Shown here in pieces: positions 11,285 through 30,497 of a DNA stretch of 32,000 nt (position 1 is the stretch's first letter; every line of letters begins with the position of its first letter). Source of the DNA: Dickeya dadantii NCPPB 898 (GTDB lineage Bacteria > Pseudomonadota > Gammaproteobacteria > Enterobacterales > Enterobacteriaceae); assembly GCF_000406145.1 (NCBI RefSeq), contig NZ_CM001976.1, positions 193,186 through 225,185 of the forward strand, in the 5' to 3' direction. A program made the position numbers and the translations under genes. Under the pieces are notes generated by a model. The model worked only from the letters and a program-made list of their open reading frames with translations. It was not told where the DNA came from and ran no database searches.

Positions 11285-11305
11285 TACGTTATTGAGTTCA
11301 TGGCG

Positions 11306-12565: not shown

Positions 12566-12601
12566 AATGGCAGCGAGTTCAACTCCCACAGGGGAGCCAT
12601 T

Positions 12602-14761: not shown

Positions 14762-14808
14762 ACACCATCCCTGTCTTTCGCCCTCCTTGATGGAGGGCTT
14801 TTTTTTGG
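14762..14808 (+). terminator. rho-independent terminator within CpxQ/cpxP-3'UTR-like element, copy A
   Basis: acaccatccctgtctttc-gccctcc-ttgat-ggagggc-tttttttt. It aligns with 22327-22370. A weaker match to the element's 5' part reaches back to about 14726. Confidence 0.6.
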
Positions 14809-14881
14809 GGCGAGCTATAGGATTGTGTGACTATCCTGCCCTGATCGTAAGCCATCCGTTTTCTGCAGGATGGCGGATATC

Positions 14882-15370
14882 CTAATTTTTATGCCATTTT
14901 TGTGTGATGGGATTACTGATTTTGTTCTCTTCCAGGGAAAAGGTCCCATTCTGTTGCGCTATTGCCTCTCCCGTTTCAACGATCGCATTTTGTATAAAAT
15001 ACTTTTCTTTGTCGCCATTAATGAATGTGAGTTGATGAAATGCAGTCTTTTTCCCCCAGTCTTCTGAAGGCAATGAGATATATCTGATGGTATAGGTTTG
15101 ATCCTGAAAATTTCCCTGCATGACGTAAACGCCATAATGCTCTTCACCTTGCGATATTATTTTATAAATACCGTTGTCGTAATAGAATATTTCTGCATCG
15201 GGGAACGGTTTTTTCTCATAGAGTTTACGGTAGTGCAGTGTTTGCCTGTAGGTCGGTTTACCAAAGCCAACCTCAAGTTTTTTTTCATTATTATCCGTTG
15301 TTAATGAGCTTGCCTGACTGGGGATTATTGCCATAAGCCCCAGGAAGAGAAATGGAAAATTCATTTTCAT
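14882..15370 (-). CDS. secreted/periplasmic protein of unknown function
   Basis: Sec-type signal peptide MKMNFPFLFLGLMAIIPSQASS with no lipobox Cys. GGAG RBS. AT-rich. Confidence 0.6.
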   Translation of the reverse strand: MKMNFPFLFLGLMAIIPSQASSLTTDNNEKKLEVGFGKPTYRQTLHYRKLYEKKPFPDAEIFYYDNGIYKIISQGEEHYGVYVMQGNFQDQTYTIRYISLPSEDWGKKTAFHQLTFINGDKEKYFIQNAIVETGEAIAQQNGTFSLEENKISNPITQKWHKN

Positions 15371-15544: not shown

Positions 15545-15728
15545 GGTTTGTTGTGCTATCGCTGTTCCAACCCTCGCTGCGCGCGTTTTTGCTGGCCCGT
15601 CAGCATAATGTCCTCCACTGCCACAACGGGCTGAAATCGCTTGGAAAAGCGTGTATCGACAGGCGTGGCGGTATCTGTTCCATACCCTTGCATGGGTCCC
15701 TTTATCGCTAATTCTGATGAGACACGTT
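15545..15728 (+). pseudogene. decayed 3' stub of a gene I homologue upstream of H2
   Basis: Translations in shifted frames (QPSLRAFLLARQHNVLHCHNG, then GVAVSVPYPCMGP) align with gpI AKPVSRHLLGLNIVMDCAGN and GDALTVYPYFPET. The stub ends at the H2 ATG, as the real I/H junction does. Confidence 0.5.
15552..15609 (+). promoter_or_regulatory. Ogr-box-like late promoter (degenerate right half-site) for H2
   Basis: TGTgctatcgctgttCCA (15552-15569), then 34 nt, then CATAAT (15604-15609). Confidence 0.4.
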
Positions 15729-17006
15729 ATGAGCACAAAATATACCGCTCTGCTTACCCAGGTGGGGGCAGCCAGGCTGGCGAATGCGATTGCGCTGGGA
15801 AAACAGCTGGAAATTACCCAAATGGGGGTGGGAGACGCTGGTGGCACGCTGCCGACGCCGGATGCGGCACAGACCAAACTGATTAACGAAAAACGACGCG
15901 CGCCGCTCAATTCACTGAACATCGACCCGACCAACGCCAATCAGATTATTGCCGAGCAGGTGATTCCGGATCACGAAGGTGGATTCTGGCTGCGTGAAAT
16001 CGGTTTGTATGACGCCGATGACAATCTGGTGGCGGTGGCCAACTGCCCCGAAACCTATAAACCGCAGATGCAGGAAGGCTCCGGCCGCGTGCAGACGGTA
16101 CGCATGATTCTGGCGGTCGGTCAGACTGATGCGGTGTCGCTGAAAATCGACCCGGCGGTGGTGCTGGCTAGCCGGCAGTATGTGGATAACATGGCCCTGG
16201 CTAAAGCTAAAAATGGCGAGGATATTGCGGATAAAGCGCAGTTTATAGAGAATTTGGGCGTGAGGAGCTCATTCTCCGGTGTAATTGGCATGACGCGAAA
16301 TGCCACGATGAATATTCCCTCCGTTTCTTCTAATGCCAGATTTTTTGCCGATGAAATCATTGTTGGAACGTCTTTGGGAGGACGCCAGTATCGAATTGGT
16401 TTATTCGAAAAGACGATCGATCTGACAAAAACTGGCGTTGGGGGGATGGATACCGGAACGGTCCCTGATGAGGGTTTTGTCGGGATTTATGTCATTTATA
16501 ATCCGGCGACGATGGCGTCAGGCTTGCTCGCGGTTAACGCCACTTCGGTCAAGTTGGCGGAGATCTATAACGGAACCAATATGCCGGATGGATATACAGC
16601 ATCGGCATTATTGACGGTTGTGCCGGTCAAGGCGGGTAAGTTTATTCCATTATCTGTTCGAGAGCGGATCGTATCTACACCATCAAGGAAAATATATTCT
16701 ACTTTAAAAGGCTCAGTAGATTTTAATATTCCTATTAGTGCTATTGTTCCATTAAATACTAAATATTTAAGTGGACATGCTCGACAAGGTAGCACTGCTT
16801 CTGGGTCATTATCGATGACAATTTCTGGTAGTGAAAATGGTTTATCTGGGCAGCAGATGACAGCCTATATTATGGAAAATGGACTTATCTCGCAGAATTA
16901 TGCTGATATTGTAATCGTTAATGATGGCTATATTTCTATCGCCACAAGTAATGCAACGTTAGGAAATGCAACATTTGACGTTTATGTTTCTAGATACTCG
17001 ATATAA
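15729..17006 (+). CDS. tail fibre paralogue H2 (H1-type body, distinct tip)
   Basis: Starts MSTKYTALLTQVGAARLANA. It has the conserved gpH N-domain. The ORF-track extension back to 15651 runs through the gene I stub. Confidence 0.85.
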   Translation: MSTKYTALLTQVGAARLANAIALGKQLEITQMGVGDAGGTLPTPDAAQTKLINEKRRAPLNSLNIDPTNANQIIAEQVIPDHEGGFWLREIGLYDADDNLVAVANCPETYKPQMQEGSGRVQTVRMILAVGQTDAVSLKIDPAVVLASRQYVDNMALAKAKNGEDIADKAQFIENLGVRSSFSGVIGMTRNATMNIPSVSSNARFFADEIIVGTSLGGRQYRIGLFEKTIDLTKTGVGGMDTGTVPDEGFVGIYVIYNPATMASGLLAVNATSVKLAEIYNGTNMPDGYTASALLTVVPVKAGKFIPLSVRERIVSTPSRKIYSTLKGSVDFNIPISAIVPLNTKYLSGHARQGSTASGSLSMTISGSENGLSGQQMTAYIMENGLISQNYADIVIVNDGYISIATSNATLGNATFDVYVSRYSI

Positions 17007-17060
17007 TATATGATTGGAACGATTTTTCATAAAAATCCACTTGATTTTTAAATTACATAT

Positions 17061-17090
17061 TGGTCTCATTAATAACTGAGACCATTTTTT
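17061..17090 (+). terminator. rho-independent terminator after H2
   Basis: tggtctca-ttaataac-tgagacca-tttttt. Confidence 0.7.
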
Positions 17091-17104
17091 AGAGAATATA
17101 CCCG

Positions 17105-17351
17105 TGATTTTACCCACGTAAAGTGGATACAGCCCTAAGCGAGGTTCTGGTTTTCAAATTGTTCCGGGTTGAGGCCGCCGCAAGCACTATGTCGATGCCA
17201 GCGGTTATAATCGCACTCGATATAATTAAACACCGTTGTTTTCATCTTTTCCCGACTGGCAATGTGCTTGCCGTGGATACATTCAATTTCAGCGAATGGA
17301 AAAATCTTTCCACGCAGGCATTATCACAACAACATCTTTTGGCACTCATGC
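17105..17351 (-). mobile_element. IS3-group fragment: terminal inverted repeat plus orfB 3' end
   Basis: The end reads tgattttacccacgtaaagtggatacagccctaagcgaggttc. The minus-strand translation ..[49 protein letters not shown] resembles the C-terminus of E. coli IS3 OrfB. It is truncated by the next IS. Confidence 0.65.
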
Positions 17352-17367
17352 TGTAAGCTCACCCGTT

Positions 17368-17658
17368 TTAGTTCCACACATTTTTTGAGATTTCCGGGTT
17401 TTCAGCTATCAGCCGGTATTCTTCCGGCGTCAGGTTATTCAGGGATTCATGAGGCCGTTCGCTGTTGTATTCGTGCAGCCAGCGCTCTGTGATTTCCCTG
17501 ACTTCATTCAGTGTTCTGAACAGATAAAAATCCAGGATTTCTGTCCGGTATGTCCGGTTGAACCGCTCGATGAAGGCATTTTGTGTCGGCCTGCCAGACT
17601 TAATAAAGTCCAGCATCACACCATGCTCCTCCGCCCACTGCGCCAGCGTCAGAGACAC
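17368..17658 (-). pseudogene. IS3-family orfB, C-terminal part
   Basis: ..GRPTQNAFIERFNRTYRTEILDFYLF...YNSERPHESLNNLTPEEY. The frame continues upstream as PELVSLTLAQW, which is the expected continuation of ...RMDNG at 19215. Confidence 0.75.
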
Positions 17659-17672
17659 CAGCTCGGGGTCGT

Positions 17673-19206
17673 GGTACCTGTGTAATACCTGACTGATGAG
17701 CTACTGGTCAGCATGTCATAAATTTTCTACACCAGGAATGAGTGCAACGTCTGGAGAAATATCATGATTGACATTACCTGCTGCGATACCCCGGTAACAT
17801 GGGCTACTATTGATATTGCTAAAAAATATCACGATGCAAAGATTAAACGCTCAAACGGTCAGGTTGTTTATCTGCGCGTCGAAAACTCACTCTCCGGGTA
17901 TACCCGGTTAATCAATCTTGCCCGTGGAGCCGGGGAAAAGAGGGTTGCCGGTTTCGAACCGACCGCCGATTATCACCGTAATATTGCCTAGTGGCTTCAG
18001 GAGCAGGGCGTCGAGTGCCATCTTGTTTCCTCGCTGGCCTGCGCCAGGGCGCGCGAAATACTTTTCAAAACCTGGGATAAAAATGACCGGAAAGATACCT
18101 GTGTCATTCTCTATCTTATGGGGCAAGGGGTTTCATCACCTTTTTATGATCCCCTGGCTAATGAAATGATGGATATTCAGGAGGTATCAAATACCTATTA
18201 TCAGATTTCCCTTGCAAGAACCCGCAGCCTCAACAGCCTGGTAAATCATTATCTGACGTTATATTTTCCTGAAGCTGAACAGTTTTACACCAGTCCCGGA
18301 CAGAATGGTTTTGTCAGTTTCTGCTGAGATTCCCCACACCACTGACAATCACCTCAATGGAAAAACACCAGTTTTTTGAGGAAGCCTGGGACATTATTGG
18401 CCGCAAACATACAAACAACAGTTTCTTGAACAGTTATATAACATTGCCGGGAATTCTGTAGCCCTGCCGCTGACGGAAAATTGCCTGGCTGTTACCACGT
18501 TTAAGCTACAAATCCGGCGGTACGTTGAACTGACTCTTCAACGACTCCAGTTAGAAAAAATGGCTGAAAGCTATCTGCAGGATCGCGCTGATTACCGCCA
18601 TCTGCGCTCGCTACCCGGCGTAGGCCCGGTGATTGCAATGATGATCATTGCTGAAAGCGGCGATCTGAACCGTTTTGCTCATTACCGTCAGTATATTAAT
18701 TACTGCGGATTTAACCTTTCAGCCAGTCAGAGTGGACAAAGGTGTAGTGGTTATAGCCTGTCAAAACGTGGAAATGCACGGCTGAGATATGCATTCTGGC
18801 TCGCTGCTACAGTCGCCATCAGAATGCAGGAAAACACCCTCAGGAACAAATATGAGCGCTATCTTAACATGGTGATACACCTGATCAGCGTCGTAAGGCC
18901 ATAACGGCTGTTGCAGCAAAACTTGCACGAATAGCGCATTCTGTAGTGAAAAGAAATGTAGATTATCAGAGGTATTTCGATATAAGCCATGGGACGTGAT
19001 TCAAACGGGTCGTAAGGCGCATCGCGACCACCAGATAATGCTCAATGCCCATGGCTTTTCCTGATGCTTTGTTAAGTCCTGTCGGGCCATATGGACCCTT
19101 GTATATCATGGTAAGCACGCCTGGCCAGCGGCGGACAGCAATATCACAATCAGAAACCGGCATGTGCTCTGGCAGACCTTTTTTTGTAAATCAGATTGAT
19201 TAAGAA
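17673..19206 (+). mobile_element. IS110-family element nested in the IS3-family orfB
   Basis: A roughly 1.5-kb insert sits exactly between the two halves of orfB and carries IS110-type transposase fragments. Confidence 0.65.
17764..18904 (+). pseudogene. IS110-family (DEDD) transposase, frameshifted
   Basis: Pieces lie in at least 3 frames: WATIDIAKKYH...GFEPTADYHRNIA, then WLQEQGVECHLVSS...DRKD, then LRSLPGVGPVIAMMIIAESGDLNRF...SGYSLSKRGNARLRYAFW. Confidence 0.65.
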
Positions 19207-19706
19207 GGTAGTCCGTTATCCATCCGCATCTTCAGCTGATAGCCGCGATTTGCCACGACCTTGTCCAGTATACGGATAACCCGTTGTGCCGGGATATTCG
19301 GGTCGATTTCAATGGCCAGTGCTTCGCGGTTAAAGTCATCCACCACATTGAAAGTCCGGAATCGTCTGCCACACATCAGCGCATCGTGCATGAAATCGAT
19401 GGACCAGCTCTGGTTGAGCGCTTCCGACGTAGCCAGTGGTGCCGGGCTACGCACCGGCAGACGCTGCTTTCCCTTACGACGAAAATTCAGTTTCAGCAGG
19501 CAATAAATCCGGTGAACACGCTTGTGATTCCAGGCGCTGCCCTGCCTGCGAAGCACCTGAAACAGTTTCTTAAAACCGTATCGCGGATAGCGTTCCGCCA
19601 TTTCAGTCAGTACCTGGATCACCGGTTCATCCCTGCCCGTATCCGGCTGATAAAAATAGACCGTCCTGCTCAGCGACAATGTCCTGCATGCCTGGTGGAT
19701 GCTCAT
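19200..19706 (-). pseudogene. IS3-family orfB, N-terminal part
   Basis: YGFKKLFQVLRRQG...WSIDFMHD...DDFNREALAIEID (the first D and second D of the DDE motif). It ends prematurely at the IS110 junction. Confidence 0.75.
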
Positions 19707-19756
19707 CGAAAATTGTGTTGTCAGGTAACCGACGAGCTCACGCTTTATCGCTGGTT

Positions 19757-20023
19757 TTAAAGCTTTTTTTCGATAACGTCTTTTAACGCCCGGTTCTCCA
19801 GACTCAGATCGGCAAACATTTGTTTGAGGCGACGATTTTCGTCCTCAAGATCCTTCATCTTTTTGATATCAGAGGTTTCCATACCGCCAAACTTTGCTTT
19901 CCAGTTATAGTACGAGGCCTCGGATATCCCCGCTTCCCGGCAGACATCTTTGACTGTGCGTCCGGCTTCGACGGACTTGAGAACGGCGATGATCTGGTGT
20001 TCGGTGAATCGGGCTTTACGCAT
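19757..20023 (-). CDS. IS3-family orfA (HTH + leucine zipper) with A_AAA_AAG frameshift site
   Basis: RFTEHQIIAVLKSVEAGRTVKDVCREAGISEASYYNWKAKFGGME. The slippery AAAAAAG (plus strand 19763-19769) lies just before the stop, and the -1 frame runs into orfB. Confidence 0.8.
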   Translation of the reverse strand: MRKARFTEHQIIAVLKSVEAGRTVKDVCREAGISEASYYNWKAKFGGMETSDIKKMKDLEDENRRLKQMFADLSLENRALKDVIEKKL

Positions 20024-20216
20024 GACGAGCTCGTCTCAGGGACATAATCAGTATGTCGGGAGATCTCTAAAAGTGAATGGTCCGGTTTGGCGGGATGCTT
20101 ACAGATCAGTTCAGTGTCACTATGGCACATTTTTTCTCTATTTCTGAGTCTTTATTAATGTTATATTCAGAGTAATAAATTGCAAGCTGTGCTGTTGAAC
20201 TAATAGAGTAGATGAT

Positions 20217-21200
20217 ATGGATATTTGTATTGAAGAGGCTGTAAGGCAAAGAATTCTCAAGATGACTAAAGAGCTGAGAATTGAGAGAATAGTACTTGGT
20301 ATGGATATGAGCACTCCAGGTATTGAGATTTCTCCTCTTTATAATCCAATAACGGATAAATCAAAACATAACGTATATTATACCGATTATACATCTGCTG
20401 AAGAATCACGTAAAAAGCATGCTGACTATGAACACGATGAAATCGTAGATCTCGATTTCATATGGGATCAGAAATTAACACTTTCTGAGTGTGTTCCTGC
20501 TGGGAATAAATTTGAATGGGCAATTGCGTCACATGTCTTAGAGCATGTCCCTGACCCTGTTGGATGGATGAATGAGATTTTAGACACACTGAATGATCGA
20601 GGAATTATTTCTCTCGTACTTCCTAATGCAGATTTAATTGGAGATCATTTAAGAAAAAAAACAGAAGTTTCGGATTTGATAGAGTCATGGCTTTATGGTA
20701 GGGAATTACCCGGACCATCTCAACTATACGACTTTCTTAGAAACACAATATCTCAAGGAAGTACGTCTGTCGCTTCAGGTGACGGCAGGCACTATACGAA
20801 AAAACAAGCAATTGACTTTGTAATCCACTCATGGACAACTGGCGAATACCTTGACGCACATTGCTCTGTGTTCAGTCCGGAAAGCTTTGTTGAGCTCATT
20901 GAAGAGTTAACGTCACTTGGCATAATGAATGTTAAAGTTGTTGAGCTTTGTCCGGCAGGTCAGGAGTTTTATGTGAAACTACAAAAAATGGGGCCCCCTT
21001 CGCTATTGCTACCCCAACGCTTTTCTCCTTATAGTTCAATGGAGTCCGCAGATCACCAGATCGCCTGTCTTACTAAAGACCTTCAGCATGCAAGGATGGC
21101 ATTTAATCAAGCCGTTGAAGTACAGGAAAAACTTAAAAAGGAAATAGAGAATTTGCAAAAAGGGCCACTCTATTTTCTTAAGCGTATACTTCATAAATAG
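20217..21200 (+). CDS. putative SAM-dependent methyltransferase-like protein with C-terminal coiled coil
   Basis: GIEISPLYNP...VYYTDY...FEWAIASHVLEHVPDPVGWMNEILDTLNDRGIISLVLPN resembles a class I MTase fold family, judged from memory only. The gene is AT-rich and flanked by insertion sequences. Confidence 0.45.
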   Translation: MDICIEEAVRQRILKMTKELRIERIVLGMDMSTPGIEISPLYNPITDKSKHNVYYTDYTSAEESRKKHADYEHDEIVDLDFIWDQKLTLSECVPAGNKFEWAIASHVLEHVPDPVGWMNEILDTLNDRGIISLVLPNADLIGDHLRKKTEVSDLIESWLYGRELPGPSQLYDFLRNTISQGSTSVASGDGRHYTKKQAIDFVIHSWTTGEYLDAHCSVFSPESFVELIEELTSLGIMNVKVVELCPAGQEFYVKLQKMGPPSLLLPQRFSPYSSMESADHQIACLTKDLQHARMAFNQAVEVQEKLKKEIENLQKGPLYFLKRILHK

Positions 21201-21339
21201 TAAAGTTGGCGGCGTATGCCGCCTCAAAAAATTCTATTTCTCTAATTGAGAAAGCGTTCAGAATTCTGTGTCACGTTAAAAAGACGACAGCGCCATCATA
21301 TTATTCAGCCGCTCGTCAAAATGAATGGCTAGCTGGGGT

Positions 21340-22258
21340 AATGTCAAATTCCAGTTCTGGACGGACATTGTCCATTTTTTAAGAGCTTGTCCGTAATTCT
21401 GTGTAACTGCCACGGTATTAAAGGTGATCGCTCAGGCGGTCACCGAACTAGATAATAAAACGGCTCATCGCCAGCCGCCAGTTTTGGATCGGCATACTCC
21501 ATTTTTTCGACGCCGCCCGTATCGCCAGATAAACAACCTTGCGCACCGAGTCGTCCGTTGGGAACACGCTGCGTTTCTTTATTGCCTAGCGGATAACGCT
21601 GTTCAATGATTCTATTGCGTTGGTGGTATATATCGCCTTACGGATGTCGGGCGGGTAGCCAAAGAGCGTGTCCAGTGCCATCAGCGCCGCCTCCTCTGTG
21701 GGGGCCTGATACACCGCCTTCAACCCGCTGGTGACCTCTTTGTAATCCTTCCACGACACGTATTTCAGGCTGCTACGCACCATGTGGATGATGCAGAGCT
21801 GGGTATGTGTTTGAGGATAAACGCTGTTTATCGCATCCGGGAAGCCCTTCAGACCGTCCACGCAGGCAATCAGGATGTCCTGAAGCCCCCGGTTTTTCAG
21901 CTCCGTCAGTACATTGAGCCAGAACTTCGCGCCTTCATTTTCGGCCAGCCACATACCCAATTTCGGCCAGCCACATACCCAATAACTCTTTCTGGCCTTC
22001 TGTACTGATGCCCAATGCGAGGAGCACGGCTTTGTTGATTACGCTGCCGCTGTAACGAACTTTTACCACGATACAATCAAGATAAACAATCGGATACAGC
22101 GAGTTCAGTGGCCGATTTTGCCATTCTGTCACCTGTTCTTTAACCGCATCAGTTACTTTGGATATCAGCGTGGGGAAACATCTGCATCATACATCTCTTT
22201 GAAGGTGGCAACGATTTCCCGCGTGGTCATGCCTTTGGCATACAGAGATAAAATCTGG
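21340..22258 (-). mobile_element. IS256-family element remnant (transposase pseudogene, 5'-truncated)
   Basis: [14 protein letters not shown]...[24 protein letters not shown]...[12 protein letters not shown]...CIIHMVRSS...[11 protein letters not shown]. It carries two in-frame TAG codons near the 3' end and a 22-bp tandem duplication (21939-21982). The lower boundary is approximate. Confidence 0.7.
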
Positions 22259-22261
22259 ACT

Positions 22262-22303
22262 GACCCCGCTTAGGGCCGTGTCCACATTAGGTGGGTAGGA
22301 TCA
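22262..22303. repeat. orphan IS3-group terminal inverted repeat
   Basis: The reverse complement tgatcctacccacctaatgtggacacggccctaagcgggg pairs with the IS3 end at 17105. The two ends bracket the whole 5.2-kb IS mosaic. Confidence 0.55.
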
Positions 22304-22370
22304 GTAACCTGTTTTCCTTGCCATAGACACCATCCCCATCTTTCGCCCATCTTTGATGGCGGGTTTTTTT
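22304..22370 (+). ncRNA. CpxQ sRNA / cpxP 3'UTR-like element with terminator, copy B
   Basis: gtaacctgttttccttgccatagacaccatccccatctttcgcccatctttgatggcgggttttttt. From memory it resembles the conserved enterobacterial cpxP 3' end, and cpxP is the upstream neighbour of fieF in E. coli. Confidence 0.4.
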
Positions 22371-22397
22371 GTCCATACTCTGTGCCGCCTTTTCTTA

Positions 22398-22581
22398 GTA
22401 CTGTTGTGCCATGACTGTGCGAACCCCCACGACGCGCGTTTTTGCTGGCCCGTCAGCATAATGTCCTCCACTGCCACAACGGGCTGAAATCGCTTGGAAA
22501 AGCGTGTATCGACAGGCGTGGCGGTATCTGTTCCATACCCTTGCATGGGTCCCTTTGTCGCTAATTCTGATGAGACACGTT
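22398..22581 (+). pseudogene. decayed gene I 3' stub upstream of H3
   Basis: Near-identical to the H2 stub from about 22430 onward, with recognisable similarity from about 22400. Confidence 0.5.
22405..22462 (+). promoter_or_regulatory. Ogr-box-like late promoter (degenerate right half-site) for H3
   Basis: TGTgccatgactgtgCGA (22405-22422), then 34 nt, then CATAAT (22457-22462). Confidence 0.35.
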
Positions 22582-23868
22582 ATGAGCACAAAATATACCG
22601 CTCTGCTTACCCAGGTGGGTGCAGCCAGGCTGGCGAATGCGATTGCGCTGGGAAAACAGCTGGAAATTACCCAAATGGGGGTGGGAGACGCTGGTGGCAC
22701 GCTGCCGACGCCGGATGCGACACAGACCAAACTGATTAACGAAAAACGACGCGCGCCGCTCAATTCACTGAACGTCGACCCGGCCAACGCCAATCAGATT
22801 ATTGCCGAGCAGGTGATTCCGGATCACGAAGGTGGATTCTGGCTGCGTGAAATCGGTTTGTATGACGCCGATGACAATCTGGTGGCGGTGGCCAACTGCC
22901 CCGAAACCTATAAACCGCAGATGCAGGAAGGCTCCAGCCGCGTGCAGACGGTACGCATGATTCTGGCGGTCGGCCAGACTGATGCGGTATCGCTGAAAAT
23001 CGACCCGGCGGTGGTGCTGGCTAGCCGGCAGTATGTAGATAACATGGCTGACGGAAAACTGGCTAAAGCTCAAAATGGTGCGGATATTACGAATAAAGCT
23101 CAGTTTATAGAGAATTTGGGTGTGAGGAACTCATTCTCCGGTGTAATTGGCATGACGCGAAATGCCACGATGAATATTCCCTCCGCTTCTTCCAGCGCCA
23201 CATTTACTGCCGATGAGATAATTGTTGGAACTGCTCTGGGGGGAAACCAATATCGGATTGGTTTATTCAAGAAGACGATCGATCTGACAAAAAATGGCGT
23301 TGGGGGAATGGATACCGGAACGGTCCCTGATGAGGGGTTTGTCGGGATTTATGCCATTTATAATCCGGCGACGATGGCGTCAGGCTTGCTCACGGTTAAC
23401 GCCACCTCAGTTAAATTGCCGGAAATCTATAACGGAACCAATATGCCGGATGGATATACAGCATCGGCATTATTGACGGTTGTGCCGGTCAAGGCGGGTA
23501 AGTTTACCGTATTATCTGTCTTTGGAAGGCAAGTGCATATTCCTGGAGTACGAGTCTATTCTGGATTACCAAATACATCAGGTGTTGATATTCCCGTTAG
23601 TAAATTCATTCCATTGAATACAAGAACTATTAGTGGGGTATTACGGCAGAGTAGTACGGGAGATGGCCTTGTATCCATAACAGTATCTAGTAATCTGAGT
23701 CCTGTTTCTGGTCAGCAGATGACAAATTATGTGTTTGCAAATATGGAGGTGTCAAATAATTATGCTGATATTCTGATTGTTGATGAGGGACATATTGTGG
23801 CTGCTGCGAGTAACGCAACATCAGGAAATGCGACGGTTATTATTGGCATATCTAAATATGCTATATGA
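22582..23868 (+). CDS. tail fibre paralogue H3 (near-copy of H2 with replaced tip)
   Basis: Starts MSTKYTALLTQVGAARLANA. It is nearly identical to H2 up to ..VPVKAGKF and then diverges. Confidence 0.85.
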   Translation: MSTKYTALLTQVGAARLANAIALGKQLEITQMGVGDAGGTLPTPDATQTKLINEKRRAPLNSLNVDPANANQIIAEQVIPDHEGGFWLREIGLYDADDNLVAVANCPETYKPQMQEGSSRVQTVRMILAVGQTDAVSLKIDPAVVLASRQYVDNMADGKLAKAQNGADITNKAQFIENLGVRNSFSGVIGMTRNATMNIPSASSSATFTADEIIVGTALGGNQYRIGLFKKTIDLTKNGVGGMDTGTVPDEGFVGIYAIYNPATMASGLLTVNATSVKLPEIYNGTNMPDGYTASALLTVVPVKAGKFTVLSVFGRQVHIPGVRVYSGLPNTSGVDIPVSKFIPLNTRTISGVLRQSSTGDGLVSITVSSNLSPVSGQQMTNYVFANMEVSNNYADILIVDEGHIVAAASNATSGNATVIIGISKYAI

Positions 23869-23949
23869 AATTCTGGTTGATGATGAGTTTATGAGATTTT
23901 TACTGTATTATCCTGTTTTTTAATATTATTTTTTTTGGTTTTTATTCAT

Positions 23950-23980
23950 TGATCTCATTAATAATCGAGGCCATTTTTTT
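23950..23980 (+). terminator. degenerate copy of the H2 terminator after H3
   Basis: tgatctca-ttaataat-cgaggcca-ttttttt. The stem is imperfect and homologous to 17061-17090. Confidence 0.4.
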
Positions 23981-24019
23981 GTAAGAGAAAATATTGTTAA
24001 TTCTAAGTGTTTTATCTGT

Positions 24020-24077
24020 TGTGCCATAAATATCACACCTCCCATATCGAATTATTTCATTAAGCGAGCAGCATAAT
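24020..24077 (+). promoter_or_regulatory. Ogr-box late promoter candidate for H4 (inside an AT-drifted gene I stub, about 24013-24201)
   Basis: TGTgccataaatatcACA (24020-24037), then 34 nt, then CATAAT (24072-24077). Confidence 0.5.
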
Positions 24078-24201
24078 GTTTTTAACGATAACAATGGGCA
24101 TGAATTACTTGAAAATTATGACGATCCATTTTCTTTCATAAGCATTTCATACCGGTGTTATATGACCTTTTCCTTTATAAATAATCCTGCAGAGAGCAAA
24201 T

Positions 24202-25494
24202 ATGGGTATTAAATACGTTACATTGCTTACCCGGGTCGGCGAGGTCAAACTGGCAGCATCGATCTTGACCGGAAAACCACTGCAAATTGCCCAAATGGGG
24301 GTGGGAGATGGCGGCGGTACTCTGCCGACGCCGGATGCGACACAGACCAAACTGGTTAATGAGAAACGGCGTGGTGCCATCAATTCACTGACGATTGATC
24401 CCAACAACACCAACCAGATTATTGCCGAACAGGTGATCCCGGAAAATGAAGGTGGGTTTTGGTTACGCGAAATCGGCCTGTATGATGTGGATGGTGATCT
24501 GATTGCAGTCGGTAATTGCCCGGAAACCTATAAGCCGGAATTGAAGGAAGGCTCCGGTCGGGTACAGACGGTACGCATGATTCTGATTGTGAGCCATACT
24601 GATGCGGTGATGATGACGTTTGACCCAACGGTGGCGCTGGCAAGCCGGCAATATGTCGATGACAAGACATTATCCTCGCTAGCGTATACCGACACGAACG
24701 TGATCGAAGTTAAATCGTATACTGACAACTTGTTAGCGGAGCATATTGCTGCGGCCGATCCGCACAAACAATATGCGCCGATTGATAGCCCGGTATTTGT
24801 TGGTAACCCCACTGCGCCGACACCGCCTTTCTTTGATGCCGACACCAGTATCGCCACCACCGCGTTTGTACAACGTGCGTTGGGAAATATGAAATCAGCG
24901 TTTGGCGTCAGGGAAAATAAGGTACTTACCAGTGATGCCTTTGGCTGTTTCATCGAGTCGCAAATAGCCGGTATCACGATTACGTTGCCTGATGCATCAC
25001 TTTGTCCTGGCGGAGTCATTGAGTTTAATAATATTTCCAATGGCGCAGTTACTGTTTCTGGCGCGAGTGTAGATATTCTCGGACCGAATAATCCATCTGG
25101 TTCGAAGATGTTGAAAATTCAAAGTGGCGTAAATGTAAAATTTCTTTCCACTGGGCCGCAATGGAGAGCGATAGGTGGAGTAGGGATTGCTGGTGCAGGA
25201 TTGAATGGTTATCAGGTGTTGCCATCTGGTATTATTATTCAATGGGGTGTTGGAAAAACGTTAGCAGCAGGTGTTATTAATCAAACATTCCCTATTGTAT
25301 ATCCCAATAATTTTTTCTCAGTAGTCATTACAGAAAATAATTCCGTTGGGTGGAATTACACTGGTGTGACTGTCTATGGGCAAAGCAATAGTACCAAGGA
25401 AATGTTAAAAGGGTATGGTGCTTTTGTCCGTAATGGTGGTTCTGTCGAATTTTCTTCTGATATCTCTTATCAATTTATTGCGATAGGGAACTGA
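24202..25494 (+). CDS. tail fibre paralogue H4
   Basis: It has the gpH N-domain and a shaft segment shared with H5 (ASRQYVDDKTLS.LAYTDTNVIEVKSY.DNLLAEHIAA..PHKQYAP). The motif ATTAFV is present. The AT-rich C-terminus contains YQVLPSGIIIQWG, a tip type common in enterobacterial phage fibres. Confidence 0.85.
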   Translation: MGIKYVTLLTRVGEVKLAASILTGKPLQIAQMGVGDGGGTLPTPDATQTKLVNEKRRGAINSLTIDPNNTNQIIAEQVIPENEGGFWLREIGLYDVDGDLIAVGNCPETYKPELKEGSGRVQTVRMILIVSHTDAVMMTFDPTVALASRQYVDDKTLSSLAYTDTNVIEVKSYTDNLLAEHIAAADPHKQYAPIDSPVFVGNPTAPTPPFFDADTSIATTAFVQRALGNMKSAFGVRENKVLTSDAFGCFIESQIAGITITLPDASLCPGGVIEFNNISNGAVTVSGASVDILGPNNPSGSKMLKIQSGVNVKFLSTGPQWRAIGGVGIAGAGLNGYQVLPSGIIIQWGVGKTLAAGVINQTFPIVYPNNFFSVVITENNSVGWNYTGVTVYGQSNSTKEMLKGYGAFVRNGGSVEFSSDISYQFIAIGN

Positions 25495-25502
25495 GGTGTA
25501 AT

Positions 25503-25880
25503 ATGTTTTATTCCAAGTCAAATAGTGGTTTTTATAGTAAAGACGTTAATGGCGCTAACATTCCCGATGATGCTGTTGAAATTAGTGATGATTATTATCA
25601 ACATTTATTGAATGAGCAGGCGCTTGGCAACACGATTATTTTTGATGAATTGGCGAAAAAACCTATCGCCGTTACCCCGGCCCCCGTATCAGAAACTCAG
25701 TTGGCTGAAGCAGCACGGCGGCAGCGTGACAATTTATTGATCGCCAGCGATTGGACCCAGGTGCCGGATGCGCCGGTTGATCAGCAAGCCTGGCGTTCTT
25801 ATCGTGCAGTATTGCGTCAGGTGCCGGAACAAACAGGTTTTCCTCACAATGTAGAGTGGCCGGTGTCGCCTGGAAAATAA
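25503..25880 (+). CDS. tail fibre assembly chaperone for H4
   Basis: The C-terminal R.QRDNLLIASDWTQVPDAPVDQQAWRSYRAVLRQVPEQTGFPHNVEWP is a typical chaperone motif. GAGGTG RBS. Confidence 0.8.
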   Translation: MFYSKSNSGFYSKDVNGANIPDDAVEISDDYYQHLLNEQALGNTIIFDELAKKPIAVTPAPVSETQLAEAARRQRDNLLIASDWTQVPDAPVDQQAWRSYRAVLRQVPEQTGFPHNVEWPVSPGK

Positions 25881-25925
25881 ATAAAAGCGCACTTTATTCA
25901 CGCTCTCCGCTTTGTTTCATTTTTT

Positions 25926-25951
25926 CCCGCCTTTACGGCGGGTTTATTTTT
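25926..25951 (+). terminator. rho-independent terminator
   Basis: cccgcc-tttac-ggcggg-tttattttt. Confidence 0.7.
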
Positions 25952-25961
25952 AATTACATGT

Positions 25962-26019
25962 TGTGTCATGGCCGACACAACGCCAGCCATACGACACGAT
26001 GCTATCCCCTTTGGATAAT
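25962..26019 (+). promoter_or_regulatory. Ogr-box late promoter candidate for H5 (inside a gene I stub, about 25955-26131)
   Basis: TGTgtcatggccgacACA (25962-25979, part of the 7-bp inverted repeat TTGTGTC/GACACAA), then 34 nt, then GATAAT (26014-26019). Confidence 0.5.
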
Positions 26020-26131
26020 GTTGTCTGAAACAGCAATAGAATGGAATGCGTTGCAAATACTGGTGGCTATTTTTTCAGGCAATTATTGCAACGTCAGTGA
26101 CACTTTTAGGCGACATAAGGGGATACTGATT

Positions 26132-27316
26132 ATGGCAGTGAAATATATGGCATTGCTTACTCATGTGGGAACGACGAAATTGGCGAATGCCACTGCGTTG
26201 GGAAAAACGCTGGATATTACACATATGGGGGTAGGTGATGGAGGTGGAAATCCGACAACGCCAGATCCTGCTCAAACGGCATTGGTTAATGAAAAACGTC
26301 GTGCTCCACTAAATTATCTGAGTGTGGATCCGGCTAATCCCAACCAGATTATTGCCGAACAGGTGATTCCGGAAAATGAAGGCGGATTCTGGCTGCGTGA
26401 GATCGGTTTGTATGACGCGGATGGCGATCTGATTGCGGTGGCCAACTGCCCGGAAACCTATAAGCCGGAACTGAAGGAAGGGTCTGGCCGGGTACAGACG
26501 GTGCGCATGATTCTGATTGTTAGCCATACCGATGCGGTGGCGTTGAAGTTTGACCCAGCGGTGGCGCTGGCAAGCCGGCAATATGTCGATGACAAGACAT
26601 TATCCGCGCTGGCGTATACCGACACGAACGTGATCGAAGTTAAATCGTATGCTGACAACTTGTTGGCGGAGCATATTGCTGCGACCAATCCGCACAAGCA
26701 ATATGCGCCGATTGTCAGCCCGGCGTTAACCGGTATTCCCACCGCGCCGACAGCGGTGGCAGGAACCAATACGACACAACTGGCAACCACTGCGTTTGTT
26801 GCTGGCGCTATTGATTTGCTATCAGGTAAAACAGACAACAACGTCAAACTAAAACTGGATATTAACGACATCGTTGGTATTCCATTGCCGTGGCCGCAGG
26901 CTACCGCCCCGGCGGGCTGGCTTAAATGTAACGGTCAAGCGTTTGATAAAAATCGCTACCCGCGGCTGGCGCAGGTTTATCCGTCAGGTGTATTGCCGGA
27001 TTTACGCGGCGAATTTATTCGTGGTTGGGATGATGGGCGAGGAGTAGATACCGGGCGCGCTATTTTGTCAGCACAAACGGGATCACTCATCGTTGGCGAT
27101 ATTGCCAACAATATTAACATGGCGACGCTGAATAATGTTGGCGAAGCAGCGACAAAAGCCAATGTAGGCTGGGATACCGCTGAATTGACCTCAGCCAAAT
27201 ATCCGTCCATCCGGGTTAACGTTGTGTCTGGTCAAACGGCGACTGATCCCTATCCATATTGTGGTGTCGCCCGCCCCCGCAACCTCGCCTTTAACTACAT
27301 CGTGAGGGCGGCGTGA
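26132..27316 (+). CDS. tail fibre paralogue H5 with tail-collar-type C-terminal domain
   Basis: Starts MAVKYMALLTHVG with an AAGGGGA RBS. The C-terminal PLPWPQATAPAGWLKCNGQAFDKNRYPRLAQVY...LPDLRGEFIRGWDDGRG is the phage tail collar motif. The ORF-track start at 25856 is read-through of the upstream region. Confidence 0.85.
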   Translation: MAVKYMALLTHVGTTKLANATALGKTLDITHMGVGDGGGNPTTPDPAQTALVNEKRRAPLNYLSVDPANPNQIIAEQVIPENEGGFWLREIGLYDADGDLIAVANCPETYKPELKEGSGRVQTVRMILIVSHTDAVALKFDPAVALASRQYVDDKTLSALAYTDTNVIEVKSYADNLLAEHIAATNPHKQYAPIVSPALTGIPTAPTAVAGTNTTQLATTAFVAGAIDLLSGKTDNNVKLKLDINDIVGIPLPWPQATAPAGWLKCNGQAFDKNRYPRLAQVYPSGVLPDLRGEFIRGWDDGRGVDTGRAILSAQTGSLIVGDIANNINMATLNNVGEAATKANVGWDTAELTSAKYPSIRVNVVSGQTATDPYPYCGVARPRNLAFNYIVRAA

Positions 27317-27936
27317 TGACGGTCCCGACACAGGAAGCATGCGCTATGCTGACGGCCGAGGGGCTGGCGTCCCGTGCAGGCTGGTTACGGGTGTATCATG
27401 CGGATACGGTAACCCGTGAATATGATGGCTACAGCGAGGAATATCTGATGTTGGGAACAGGGATTCCGGCGCACAGTTATGCTGATGGGCCGCCGCAATC
27501 TGTGGCGGAAGGGCAAACGCTGCGCCGTTCGTCCGATGGTCTACGGTGGGAACTGATACCAGATCTTCGCGGGCGGACTGTCTACGATACACAGACGCGC
27601 CAGCCGCAGGTGGTGAGTGAGCTGGGGCCGTTGCCCATCAGTCTGACCCTGCTGCTGCCTGCCAGCGAGTTTGACTGCTGGAATGGTGTGCAATGGGTGA
27701 CCGATATCGCCGCTCATCAGGCAAGTCTGGCGCAGTCGGCGCGGCAGGAGCGCGATACCCGGCGTCAGGTTGCGCATGACCGTATCCGGGAACTGACCTA
27801 TGCGCAGGAACTGGAGATGGCCACCGAACAGGAAATCCGGGCGCTTAAGGACTGGAAAATCTATCTGGTGCAGTTAAGCCACATCGACCCGACCCATGCG
27901 CCGGATATTGACTGGCCGACCATACCAACAAACTGA
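27316..27936 (+). CDS. Tfa/gpG-type tail fibre assembly protein for H5
   Basis: GTGATGA overlap with the H5 stop. The C-terminal YAQELEMATEQEIRALKDWKIYLVQLSHIDPTHAPDIDWP is the Tfa signature. Confidence 0.85.
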   Translation: MTVPTQEACAMLTAEGLASRAGWLRVYHADTVTREYDGYSEEYLMLGTGIPAHSYADGPPQSVAEGQTLRRSSDGLRWELIPDLRGRTVYDTQTRQPQVVSELGPLPISLTLLLPASEFDCWNGVQWVTDIAAHQASLAQSARQERDTRRQVAHDRIRELTYAQELEMATEQEIRALKDWKIYLVQLSHIDPTHAPDIDWPTIPTN

Positions 27937-27953
27937 TTTGAATCTGTCGTGAT

Positions 27954-28001
27954 ACCCGTTCGGAATAACAACGCTCTGTTATTCCGAACGGGTTGTTTTT
28001 T
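27954..28001 (+). terminator. strong rho-independent terminator
   Basis: A 17-bp perfect stem, acccgttcggaataaca / tgttattccgaacgggt, followed by tgtttttt. Confidence 0.8.
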
Positions 28002-28081
28002 ATTGGCCTCTCTGACCGGCTGTTTATCCCCTTGCTTCTTAATGAGATCTTCATCTTGCTGGCAGGCATCAATAGCTTTGT

Positions 28082-28138
28082 TGTGCCATCGTCGTCACAC
28101 CCTTGTGAACGGGTGATTTTACTGGCTATCAGCATAAT
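28082..28138 (+). promoter_or_regulatory. Ogr-box late promoter candidate for H6 (inside a gene I stub, about 28075-28240)
   Basis: TGTgccatcgtcgtcACA (28082-28099), then 33 nt, then CATAAT (28133-28138). Confidence 0.5.
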
Positions 28139-28240
28139 GGTTGTCAGAAGGCAGACAGGACAATCAGCACTTGCCGTGCTTTGATCCTCCCCTGCAGCTG
28201 CCTGACCTTTTTCTTTAAAATCATGCTGATGAGAGAATCG

Positions 28241-29599
28241 ATGGGGACCAAATATTTCACCTTGCTCACCCAGATGGGTGAGAAAAAACTGGCGGCTGCG
28301 ATAGCCGCAGGAAAACCGCTGGAGCTGGTACAAATGGGGGTGGGGGATGGCAACGGTGTACTCCCCGCCCCGGATTCGGTACAGACCAGACTGGTTAATG
28401 AAAGACGGCGTGGGGCCATCAATTCACTAACGGTCGATCCGGATAATGCCAGCCAAATGATTGCCGAACAGGTGATCCCGGAAAATGAAGGCGGGTTCTG
28501 GCTGCGTGAAATCGGTCTGTACGATGTGGATGGCGATCTGATCGCGGTCGGCAACTGCCCGGAAACCTATAAGCCAGAATTGAAGGAAGGTTCCGGTCGG
28601 GTACAGACGGTACGCATGATTCTGATTGTCAGTCGCACCGATGCGGTGACGCTGAAGTTTGACCCGACGGTGGCGCTGGCGACACGGCGTTATGCGGATA
28701 CGTTGCTGGCCGATCATGTGGCAGCAATGAATCCGCACAAGCAGTATGCACCGATTGAAAGCCCGGTTTTTACCGGTAGTCCTACGGCACCGACACCAAC
28801 GGCAGGCGATAACAGTAAAAAGCTGGCAACAACGGAATTCGTCGCTGTCGGGCTATCAGGGAAAATGGATAAAAATCAGAACGGTGCTGATATCCAGGAT
28901 CCTGCCCAGTTTGTCAAAAACCTTGGTTTAGAAAGTCGCTTTGCAGGCCGCATCCTGCGCATAAAAAAAATCACCTCAAGCCAGAACTATCAATGGCCTG
29001 ATGATGTGTCTGCTATCGATGTCACCATTTGCGGTGCGGGCGGTGGTGGTGGTGCGGCGGCGGCATCCGCACAGAATTATCACTCGGCTGGGTCTGGCGG
29101 TGGCGCGGGTGGCTGTGCACGATCTTTTTATCGTAAAGGTGACATTCCTGCGTTGATCTATCTGGAGGTCGGAGCAGGCGGTATAGGCGGTGTAGACGCG
29201 ACATATGAACCGGGGTTGGGTGGCGCGACGAAATTTGGAACGTTAATGACGGCGAACGGGGGGTCAAGAGGTGCTAACGGTATTGCGATTGCAATCGGTA
29301 TGTCCGTCTTGATTGGTAACGGCGGTGGGGGTAATGCGTCTGGTGGGAATCTTGTCGCGGGTTTTGGCGGCTCAGGTACGCCTGCGATGTTTTTCAATAG
29401 TGGCTATGAATCCGGTGCGGGCGGTGATTCTGTTTTTTCATTTGGTGTACCGCCGATTGCATCAAATGCGCCTATAGGCGGATTTGATGGCGTAGATGGT
29501 GCTGGCGGTAGTGGCGGATATACGGTACCCGCAGGAGCCAGTGCTAAAGGCGGCAATGGCGGTAATGGCGTTATCATGATTGTGGAGTATTCAGCATGA
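28241..29599 (+). CDS. tail fibre paralogue H6 with glycine-rich C-terminal domain
   Basis: Starts MGTKYFTLLTQMGEKKLAAA. It has the gpH N-domain. The C-terminal roughly 190 aa are rich in GGxG runs (GAGGGGGAAAAS, GSGGGAGG, GNGGGGNASGGN, GAGGSGG). Confidence 0.85.
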   Translation: MGTKYFTLLTQMGEKKLAAAIAAGKPLELVQMGVGDGNGVLPAPDSVQTRLVNERRRGAINSLTVDPDNASQMIAEQVIPENEGGFWLREIGLYDVDGDLIAVGNCPETYKPELKEGSGRVQTVRMILIVSRTDAVTLKFDPTVALATRRYADTLLADHVAAMNPHKQYAPIESPVFTGSPTAPTPTAGDNSKKLATTEFVAVGLSGKMDKNQNGADIQDPAQFVKNLGLESRFAGRILRIKKITSSQNYQWPDDVSAIDVTICGAGGGGGAAAASAQNYHSAGSGGGAGGCARSFYRKGDIPALIYLEVGAGGIGGVDATYEPGLGGATKFGTLMTANGGSRGANGIAIAIGMSVLIGNGGGGNASGGNLVAGFGGSGTPAMFFNSGYESGAGGDSVFSFGVPPIASNAPIGGFDGVDGAGGSGGYTVPAGASAKGGNGGNGVIMIVEYSA

Positions 29600-29991
29600 G
29601 TAAAATATACGCGGTAATCGAGAACGGCGTGGTGATTAATACCGTGGTCTGGGATAGCGATGTTGAGGCTGACTGGAAGCCGCAGAATGGCGCGTTAATC
29701 GATATTTCATCAGAGCGTGTCGGTGTCGGTTATTTGTATTCTGACGGCGTGTTTACTCCACCCGAGAAACGCCGCGATGAATATATTGCGGACGCCACGC
29801 TACAAAAAACGCAGCTATTGTCAGAAGCGCAAAAAGCGATAGCAAACTGGCAGACCGACCTACTGCTGGGAATTATTTCTGACGATGATAAAAACCGGTT
29901 GGCCCGTTGGCGCGAGTACATGAAACAAATTGACGCTATTGATGTGCAGACCGCCCCAGCTATCAACTGGCCAATTCCCCCAGTCTCCTAA
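29596..29991 (+). CDS. tail fibre assembly chaperone for H6
   Basis: ATGA overlap with the H6 stop. The C-terminal LLLGIISDDDKNRLARWREYMKQIDAIDVQTAPAINWP is Tfa-like. Confidence 0.8.
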   Translation: MSKIYAVIENGVVINTVVWDSDVEADWKPQNGALIDISSERVGVGYLYSDGVFTPPEKRRDEYIADATLQKTQLLSEAQKAIANWQTDLLLGIISDDDKNRLARWREYMKQIDAIDVQTAPAINWPIPPVS

Positions 29992-30497
29992 CTGGATGTA
30001 GATGCCTTGCCCGCAGCCGGCCACAGCATCTCAACCAACTGCTCTGGATAGACTTGGTCCTGCGTGGCCAGCAGTTCATCGCGGCTCCACCAGTGGTGGT
30101 CCCGCATCACTTCCCGTTCATGTGCTGTCCATGCGTCAGTGTGGATGGCGCTGTCTGCAACGTGGATGACAAAAAACCGTTCATCGGCAATCACGGTGTC
30201 CCCGTTGGGCATCGCCATGTTAAAGGTTTGGGCAGCGAGGCAGGGGCCGGGGTCCTGGCGGCGGATGCCGGTTTCTTCCCACAGCTCCCGCAGCGCCGCT
30301 TGCTCAAAGCTTTCTCCGCTTTCCACTGCGCCGCCCGGCGTGGCCCAATAACGTTTCCCGGCAAGGGCATCACGAGTATGGTGAAACAGGAATAGCAACA
30401 CCCGTTGTTCAGGATTGAGGATCAGCAGGCGTGAGGCAGGTCGGCGTTTCATAAGGTTTCCTGGCGTATATCTGGTCGTCAGTATTTTCCCCGTCAT
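29988..30497 (-). CDS. Nudix hydrolase (likely start ATG 30452)
   Basis: Nudix box GGAVESGESFEQAALRELWEETGI. Its stop overlaps the stop of the convergent chaperone gene by 4 nt. Confidence 0.85.
   Translation of the reverse strand: MTGKILTTRYTPGNLMKRRPASRLLILNPEQRVLLFLFHHTRDALAGKRYWATPGGAVESGESFEQAALRELWEETGIRRQDPGPCLAAQTFNMAMPNGDTVIADERFFVIHVADSAIHTDAWTAHEREVMRDHHWWSRDELLATQDQVYPEQLVEMLWPAAGKASTSS

Follow-up and report, generated by a model that had tools for sequence, protein, structure and literature searches.

The window, meaning the whole 32,000-nucleotide (nt) stretch of Dickeya dadantii NCPPB 898 analysed here (contig NZ_CM001976.1, positions 193,186 to 225,185), carries the right arm of a P2-like prophage and, beside it, an array of tail-fibre cassettes. 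Six genes on the + strand, H1 to H6, encode a complete gpH N-terminal docking domain (PF12571, profile positions 1 to 149-150 of 150, E-values from 7e-60 to 5e-65), in agreement with the first-pass annotation, which had read this DNA from its letters alone. As that annotation also saw, H1 is the only one of them in the V-W-J-I-H operon, and H2 to H6 start 2.9-15.4 kb past the late-gene activator gene ogr. H1 directly abuts gene I (the two overlap in ATGA) and is translationally coupled to it; H2 to H6 have no gene I upstream and lie outside the prophage, and they form a same-strand array of five complete extra cassettes, all with the docking domain and several with a chaperone gene of their own (Table 1).

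A cassette consists of a predicted promoter, a leader of ~100-120 nt with a conserved GAGA ribosome-binding region at its end, the H gene, an optional chaperone gene and usually a terminator, and the predicted promoters and terminators would make each cassette a separate transcription unit. The open reading frames (ORFs) of H2-H6 are all intact. The first 150 residues of the six fibres share 66-97% mutual identity, and beyond that point the proteins are of different types: H1, H2 and H3 have one C-terminal type without a Pfam family, H4 has Gp53-like_C, H5 Collar and H6 Gly_rich_2. A standard chaperone is found after H4, H5 and H6, and none after H1, H2 and H3. Promoter, leader and first 150 codons are nearly identical between H2 (15549-16180) and H3 (22402-23035), with a synonymous divergence (dS) of 0.027 in these codons as opposed to 0.51 in the rest, a difference indicating that promoter and N-domain were recently homogenised, by conversion or by recombination ending at the N-domain boundary. 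The window ORFs scanned contain no Resolvase/invertase and no reverse-transcriptase domain, no fibre segment is inverted, no inverted repeat of at least 40 nt is present, and the direct repeats are the N-domains themselves, all of which upholds the earlier exclusion of an invertible switch and of a diversity-generating retroelement. A structured leader RNA was also considered and discarded, the leaders being no more stable than their shuffles (z -0.4 to 0.9) and without a match in Rfam.

The region 5' of each array fibre carries a compact signature. The motif TGTTGTGYYAT is present five times in the window, always on the + strand and ~160-185 nt 5' of the starts of H2-H6, where 0.05 occurrences would be expected. 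It opens a dyad that is a perfect TGT-N12-ACA in H4-H6, TGT-N12-CCA in H2 and TGT-N12-CGA in H3, and that is followed in all five cases, after 33-34 nt, by a -10 hexamer (CATAAT, or GATAAT in H5). Assuming a transcription start ~7 nt past this hexamer, the centre of the dyad falls at about -55, and a consensus scan for a sigma-70 -35 element returned nothing in four of the five promoters and one weak match (9/12) in H5. The annotated activator sites of P2 (AF063097) read cTGTTGTGTCAGTGATAAGCCA for PO, gGTTGTGCTGTCGATTAGCCA for PF and aTGTTGTCTGG... for PV, and the CCA half-site seen in H2 is also that of P2's own PO and PF. P2 thus shares with the array the left half-site, the CCA form found at H2 and the spacing up to the -10 hexamer, all three being features of Ogr-dependent late promoters; the landmarks fit a promoter of the P2 Ogr/Delta type, for which dependence on an Ogr protein is predicted.

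The signature is retained well beyond this strain. Among 88 unique upstream regions of array fibres, drawn from ~25 related arrays, 84 have the box 150-185 nt 5' of the ATG, the four exceptions being H1, two regions with a variant resembling P2 PF (GGTTGTG) and one deleted pseudogene, and the best-conserved non-coding columns are the box, the ACA and the -10 hexamer. As a control we took, from the IMG/VR loci matching an H N-domain, the best 80: the motif is absent from the 330 nt upstream of all 72 fibre genes that abut gene I and present at all those set apart from it (11/11). The window follows the same rule, H1 being its sole H start without an upstream box. The exact pattern TGTTGTGCCAT-N7-ACA-N32-35-CATAATG was recovered in 18 of 2.9 million IMG/VR contigs, nearly always two to four times per contig; a looser pattern gave mostly single matches, and 55 of the 57 loci newly fetched with it had no similarity to proteins of the window.

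Two further observations concern these promoters. Most cassettes have a second conserved TGTTGT-like string just past the -10 hexamer, around the expected start (consensus GTTGTCAGAGGCAACAAC), and array promoters of other loci have it as well. Three comparison loci (L020 at ~2347-2937, L021 at ~1672-2262 and L027 at ~2347-2937) have the promoter directly followed by an H4-type chaperone gene, with no fibre gene between them.

The array belongs to the Dickeya chromosome. The attachment site at the right end of the prophage (attR) is a copy of the attachment (att)/terminator sequence found just 3' of cpxP in non-lysogenic Dickeya: by blastn it matches the region downstream of cpxP in loci L011 and L012, and E. 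coli P2-like prophages that have inserted next to cpxP have this sequence as their attL. The copy at attR includes a terminator at 14780-14798. A second, fuller copy, which retains more of the cpxP-side flank, lies 32 nt 5' of the H3 box and marks the native start of the array. In the IMG/VR contig L066, from a second strain with the same prophage (98% identity for D, 100% for Ogr), the order is ogr, M78 peptidase, membrane protein, att sequence and, immediately next to it, the first cassette. The two att copies and this junction together indicate that the prophage ends at attR, that the M78 peptidase and the 264-amino-acid (aa) membrane protein, both on the ogr side of attR, are its variable cargo, and that the array, on the other side, is chromosomal; it adjoins ogr because the phage attachment site sits at its head. 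The locus order cpxA, cpxR, cpxP, array, NUDIX hydrolase (opposite strand), HTH-2TM, fieF, pfkA is found in five placed Dickeya genomes (D. oryzae, D. undicola, D. solani, D. zeae EC1 and CP094943.1), without any phage or tail gene within 8-10 kb of the array, and NUDIX, HTH-2TM and fieF flank it in the same order in L011, L012, L029, L030 and L090. The array is therefore a locus of the Dickeya chromosome between cpxP and NUDIX/fieF, beside the prophage and outside it. The att mapping and the prophage-free genomes rule out that it is prophage cargo (a moron) past ogr or an appendage of the P2-like element, and the first-pass placement outside the tail operon did not go far enough. A 63-bp match to the record 'Escherichia phage P2' was for a time a candidate cos site; that record begins at attL by int, and the match is the att region downstream of cpxP.

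The 7.5-kb stretch between the two att copies contains a 162-aa ORF (unk162), H2, insertion-sequence (IS) fragments and a methyltransferase gene, and amounts to an extra, rearranged array head. In L011 unk162 is found at the same place, and D. oryzae and D. zeae also have it between cpxP and their first cassette. For the origin of the att duplication, a second integration, an IS-mediated rearrangement and imported DNA are candidates.

Table 1. Coordinates of the features discussed, in positions of the 32,000-nt window.
Feature	Position	Strand	Details and evidence
Cassette H2	15549-17084	+	ORF 15729-17006; no chaperone; terminator 17061-17084
H2 promoter (predicted)	box 15549-15559	+	TGT-N12-CCA 15552-15569; -10 CATAAT 15604-15609
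Cassette H3	22402-23868	+	ORF 22582-23868; no chaperone; degenerate terminator only
H3 promoter (predicted)	box 22402-22412	+	TGT-N12-CGA 22405-22422; -10 22457-22462
Cassette H4	24017-25942	+	ORF 24202-25494; chaperone 25503-25880 (PF16778); terminator 25926-25942
H4 promoter (predicted)	box 24017-24027	+	TGT-N12-ACA 24020-24037; -10 24072-24077
Cassette H5	25959-27993	+	ORF 26132-27316; chaperone 27313-27936 (Caudo_TAP); terminator 27954-27993
H5 promoter (predicted)	box 25959-25969	+	TGT-N12-ACA 25962-25979; -10 GATAAT 26014-26019
Cassette H6	28079-29991	+	ORF 28241-29599; chaperone 29596-29991 (Caudo_TAP)
H6 promoter (predicted)	box 28079-28089	+	TGT-N12-ACA 28082-28099; -10 28133-28138
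Second TGTTGT-like string	24078-24100, 26020-26045, 28139-28165		
attR of prophage	14762-14811	+	att/terminator sequence
162-aa ORF (unk162)	14882-15370	-	function unassigned; 91% aa identity in L011
IS graveyard	17100-22000		IS3, IS110 and IS256 fragments; Pfam
rve/IS3 fragments	17368-17658, 19200-19706		Pfam
IS110 pieces	17764-17991, 18560-18904		Pfam
isrN-like RNA match	19616-19758		Rfam, 126 bits
Orphan methyltransferase	20217-21200		low GC; Pfam
IS256 fragment	21586-21960		Pfam
Second, fuller att/terminator copy	22303-22370	+	
NUDIX hydrolase, right flank	29988-30497	-	Pfam
HTH-2TM protein, right flank	30655-31125		Pfam
fieF start, right flank	from 31256		leaves window; sequence inspection
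P2-like (Novemvirus-type) prophage, right arm	88-12850	both	Pfam matches and comparison with phiT5282H
Prophage LysC, R, S, V, W, J, I, H1		+	Pfam
Gene I	3388-3996	+	
H1, prophage's own fibre	3993-5387	+	PF12571, 4.7e-65
Prophage U, T, E, FII, FI	5565-11284	-	Pfam
Prophage late promoter box 5' of FI (putative)	11344-11366	-	TGTTGTCGCCGGACGGCCAGACC, 34 nt, GATTAT
Prophage D and ogr, after the U-FI block		+	Pfam
ogr, late-gene activator	12602-12850	+	PF04606, 4.9e-17
M78/CapP-like peptidase, prophage cargo	13309-13794	+	PADLOC capP, 2e-26
264-aa membrane protein, prophage cargo	13863-14657	+	phrog_8096

Arrays of this kind are present in many independent assemblies, including the single contig of the 5.2-Mb genome CP094943.1, which meets the earlier concern that the paralogues might be an assembly artefact. 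Relatives of H4 among the species-representative genomes come from D. oryzae and D. undicola; further arrays are found in D. solani, where cassettes of the H2 and H3 types stand in tandem, in D. zeae EC1 and in CP094943.1, the closest genome found, with ~95% nt identity to the window from H4 to fieF. Cassette number is 3-5 in the five placed genomes and reaches six or seven on unplaced IMG/VR array contigs. The cassette types follow one another in the same order across species, pointing to an old and maintained locus. Overall, the ratio of non-synonymous to synonymous divergence (dN/dS) against orthologues is 0.05-0.5: compared with CP094943.1 it is 0.27 for H3, 0.14 for both H5 and H6, 0.43 for the H5 chaperone and 0.19 for the H6 chaperone, while H6 gives 0.07 against L008 and H4 gives 0.08 against D. 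oryzae at a dS of 1.7, which is saturated. These values suggest that the cassettes have retained a function.

A tail on which such fibres could be mounted is encoded throughout the genus by P2D1, a conserved P2-like tailocin of Dickeya described in D. dadantii 3937 (PMC10719855), in which an Ogr homologue and a 355-nt gap between I and H are reported (PMC10719855, supplementary file 3). It is under study for biocontrol; many Dickeya and Musicola are killed by it, and even Pseudomonas (PMC10719855, PMC12904277). We compared three of its clusters, that of 3937 (L171, CP002038.1 2732588-2753199, 20.6 kb) and those of two array-bearing genomes (L093 and L094). The 3937 cluster contains TGTTGTGYYAT exactly twice, 119 nt 5' of X and 92 nt 5' of the sheath gene (0.05 expected), and the promoters of X and sheath share the identical 11-mer TGTTGTG(C/T)CAT. 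The interval between I and H is occupied by a terminator, TGTTGTCTCC...ACAAC (TGT-N12-ACA), 34 nt, CATACT and a long leader, so that, with I, terminator, late promoter, leader and H in this order, the tailocin's own fibre is built like the array cassettes. Late promoters of the adjacent prophage's type read TTGTTGTCG...GGCCAGAC, and the putative box 5' of FI is of this Novemvirus flavour and distinct from the array box. By box sequence, the predicted array promoters thus match the late promoters of P2D1 and not those of the prophage next to them. The docking domains do not single out a partner tail: the N-domain of P2D1-like fibres is 68-76% identical to those of H2-H6 and 80-83% to that of H1, and H1 is 66-76% identical to H2-H6. 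The prophage Ogr, used as a search query, returned no Dickeya protein.

The interval between fibre and sheath in the 3937 cluster (L171 12359-18992) deserves separate mention. It holds a phytase-like gene, an MFS transporter, an Smr gene, a resolvase-type DNA invertase (16945-17514), a fibre fragment and a chaperone gene; the fragment, of 230 aa with a Collar domain and no docking domain, corresponds to the 'side tail fiber' that mass spectrometry detected in particles, and an inversion or exchange switch may exist here. In Erwinia rhapontici (L089, 10001-13516), a headless P2-like cluster has two fibre and chaperone pairs, the second of which is preceded by a duplicate of the sheath-gene late promoter together with the opening codons of that gene.

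Taken together, these results suggest that the array is probably an unlinked, Ogr-driven library of alternative fibres for the P2-type tails made in the cell. Such tails would be produced on induction of the genus-wide P2D1 tailocin or of the neighbouring prophage. An Ogr-type zinc-finger activator, supplied by P2D1 after DNA damage, would fire the five array promoters in trans, and the prophage Ogr would probably do so too, since Ogr-family proteins cross-activate. Activators of this family act in trans on unlinked promoters, the precedent being P2 Ogr and P4 Delta, each of which activates the late promoters of the other. The fibres would then trimerise with their chaperones and dock by the conserved N-domain on baseplates under assembly, so that the particles, singly or as a population, would carry several receptor specificities and have a wider killing or host range. 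Of the two roles that the first-pass annotation had proposed, mounting several fibres on one baseplate is in better agreement with the anatomy, as each cassette appears to be an independently expressed unit, and a silent reservoir for the H1 slot agrees less well, because the cassettes do not look silent and share homology with H1 only at their 5' end. A bolder version, which we put forward as a possibility with rather less confidence, is that Dickeya keeps its tailocin specificity module apart from the tail genes, tied to them through Ogr-type promoters and parked at the attachment site of P2-like phages: any P2-type activator, whether from tailocin or phage, would fire it, and host fibres would be mounted on tailocins as well as on virions of P2-like phages, whether resident or incoming, whose progeny would be retargeted.

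Several points weigh against an Ogr-driven library. The assignment of promoter function is drawn from sequence geometry and conservation. The two in-cluster fibres of E. rhapontici L089 have N-domains that are 92% identical, compared with which those of the array, with only 68-80% mutual identity, are rather divergent, so that it is not guaranteed that all five can dock to a single baseplate. In P2D1 particles from strain 3937, the two in-cluster fibre proteins were the only ones of the kind reported by mass spectrometry, from eight gel bands only and in a strain in which the presence of the array could not be established (PMC10719855). Finally, other genomes have some cassettes with a truncation, a frameshift or an IS insertion, and not every cassette is kept.

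Other explanations have to be weighed against the same evidence. The cassettes might serve mainly as donors, their receptor-binding ends being swapped through N-domain homology into the H slot of a prophage or tailocin, and phage lineages do retain the N-domain while exchanging the remainder of the fibre: H1 and the fibre of L031, a sister phage, share 94% identity over 150 aa and are unrelated beyond them, the C-terminal part being of the H2/H3 type in H1 and of the H5 (Collar) type in L031. The dS contrast between H2 and H3 is likewise a sign of recent conversion of promoter and N-domain. We nevertheless regard a recombination reservoir as unlikely, as the cassettes do not look silent, each with a start codon, a ribosome-binding site, a predicted promoter and often a terminator, and their homology to the H1 slot is confined to the 5' side (74% nt identity over a 300-nt stretch of the N-domain); a clean replacement of H1 would have no 3' arm to use. 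H1 is moreover only ~50% identical to H2/H3 overall, so that no recent exchange has taken place, and cassette types and order are kept as orthologues across species. A different role, as a counter-measure of the host, would have the Ogr of an infecting P2-like phage fire the chromosomal fibres, so that progeny are loaded with them and retargeted or disabled, limiting spread among kin. A phage activator acting in trans should indeed drive the promoters, P2-like phages land at the very site of the array, and the N-domains of the fibres are diverse (66-80% identity), as if fitting several baseplates; this scenario is purely inferential, the box matches the promoters of the resident tailocin and not those of the one phage available for comparison, and a PADLOC scan covering unk162 and the orphan methyltransferase, with the fibre and chaperone genes outside it, found no known defence domain in either, and we consider this role very unlikely.

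That the array is debris, the remains of serial P2-like prophages or of att-proximal cargo at the cpxP attB, decayed and without present function, would account for its position exactly at a P2-family attB, for the two att copies, for the IS fragments and pseudogenised cassettes in the window and its relatives, and for a GC content of 0.39-0.56, below that of the flanks. It would not account for the lack of any other phage gene between the cassettes in all of the ~25 arrays, nor for promoter elements that are the best-conserved non-coding positions and dN/dS values of 0.05-0.5 at dS up to saturation; and since none of the 72 canonical P2-type fibre genes has a promoter of its own, ordinary prophage decay would not yield promoter-equipped units, so that we hold this explanation to be quite unlikely. 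The proposal of the first-pass annotation, that the repeated unit is a duplicated junction of genes I and H with a decayed 3' end of gene I in each copy, has to be given up almost entirely. It had rightly noticed shared landmarks in the 170-190 nt upstream of each extra fibre, and a few short strings of the gene I 3' end resemble them by eye (GTCATGGACTG; GCTGGCC...CAATACAG). However, tblastn of gpI against the 300 nt 5' of H2-H6 gave scattered matches without colinearity (best E 0.57 in a 1.5-kb database), blastn-short lent no support, and shuffled Smith-Waterman alignments of the last 200 nt of gene I from the window, P2 and phiT5282H gave z from -1.0 to 2.25 against these regions, when most of the latter scored z 3-130 against one another. 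Instead, the landmarks fall on the promoter dyad and on the -10 hexamer, which keep a constant distance from each other.

The prophage itself is of the Novemvirus type, with gene order identical to that of Enterobacter phage phiT5282H at 78% nt identity. Compared with canonical P2, its FI-FII-E-T-U block is inverted, FI and D being divergent from one 117-nt intergenic region, which is the normal layout in the phiT5282H/Novemvirus group. A 51-aa ORF at 5384-5539 overlaps the H1 stop and matches phrog_20339 (function unassigned) over its full length. By inspection, a hairpin with a T-run follows ogr at ~12857-12886, and just past ogr the GC content falls from ~0.60 to 0.39, stays at 0.39-0.56 until ~30 kb and then returns to 0.56-0.59. 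The M78 peptidase between ogr and attR resembles CapP/RmrA, and the versions of it and of the membrane protein in L066 are only 64% and 44% identical to those of the window; this two-gene cargo gives the impression of a rapidly changing hotspot and may be a defence or immunity module. On the other side of attR, H2 is separated from the rest of the array by the IS graveyard.

The finding bears directly on how an actively studied biocontrol tailocin obtains its target range, as the killing range of P2D1 has so far been discussed only through its in-cluster fibre genes. If three to seven unlinked fibres are indeed co-expressed, this range and the differences between strains would need to be re-read, and fibre genotyping of Dickeya should cover the cpxP-fieF array. 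The promoter box together with PF12571 offers a simple signature for specificity loci wired in trans, which prophage predictors now report as small orphan viral regions (the IMG/VR contigs found hold nothing else), and the promoter-fibre-chaperone units may be handy parts for retargeting P2-type tailocins.

Among known systems, the late promoters of P2 (PP, PO, PV and PF) and of P4 have in common with the array a TGTTGT-containing dyad, TGT-N12-(A/C)CA, lying by its spacing ~55 nt 5' of the start, a -10 hexamer and no usable -35; they differ in that the P2 promoters drive four structural operons, whereas those of the array, for which Ogr activation is predicted, would drive single chromosomal fibre cassettes. 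P4 is an earlier example of unlinked genes that have joined the late regulon of P2. P2D1 belongs to the same genus, has the identical 11-mer at its X and sheath promoters, sets its fibre apart from I and encodes an Ogr homologue; it is a separate locus, with a resolvase-type invertase and a fibre fragment lacking the N-domain, neither of which the array has, and the P2D1 literature searched makes no mention of the cpxP-fieF array.

Several complete fibre genes with chaperones for one kind of tail are also found in kosakonicin, a multi-fibre R-type tailocin of Kosakonia (PMC6629978), in Pseudomonas chlororaphis 30-84, in Pragia/Leminorella and in three IMG/VR metagenome contigs (L104, L106 and L111) with J, I, three fibre cassettes and a sheath gene. 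Each fibre of these contigs stands behind TGT-N12-CCA, a spacer and a -10-like hexamer, in the geometry of the sheath-gene promoter, so that one promoter per fibre is not unique to Dickeya. In contrast with the array, all these loci have their fibres inside the tail cluster, between I and sheath, while that of Dickeya is unlinked, genus-wide and at a phage attB, flanked in prophage-free genomes by cpxRA-cpxP and NUDIX-fieF-pfkA. Xenorhabdicin (xnp1/xbp1), of P2 type, has up to 13 fibre and chaperone genes associated with its killing spectrum, the extra fibres lacking the N-terminal docking domain and being proposed to work through inversion or through exchange with the principal fibre (PMC13280938); the array copies, by comparison, are all complete, each with its own predicted promoter. 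Mu Gin, P1 Cin, carotovoricin Er and diversity-generating retroelements serve the same purpose of obtaining more than one receptor specificity from one tail, by means of the invertases, inverted repeats or reverse transcriptases that are missing from the window as scanned above. The novelty claimed in the first-pass annotation was therefore too strong, given the multi-fibre P2-type tailocin loci already published (PMC6629978, PMC13280938) and the metagenomic P2-like clusters with one late promoter per in-cluster fibre. The literature searched holds no description of an array that is unlinked from the tail cluster, genus-wide, located at a phage attB and sharing the promoter box of a tailocin. 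Multi-fibre tailocin loci were known before; what appears to be new in Dickeya, within the literature searched, is the unlinked, genus-wide array at a phage attachment site.

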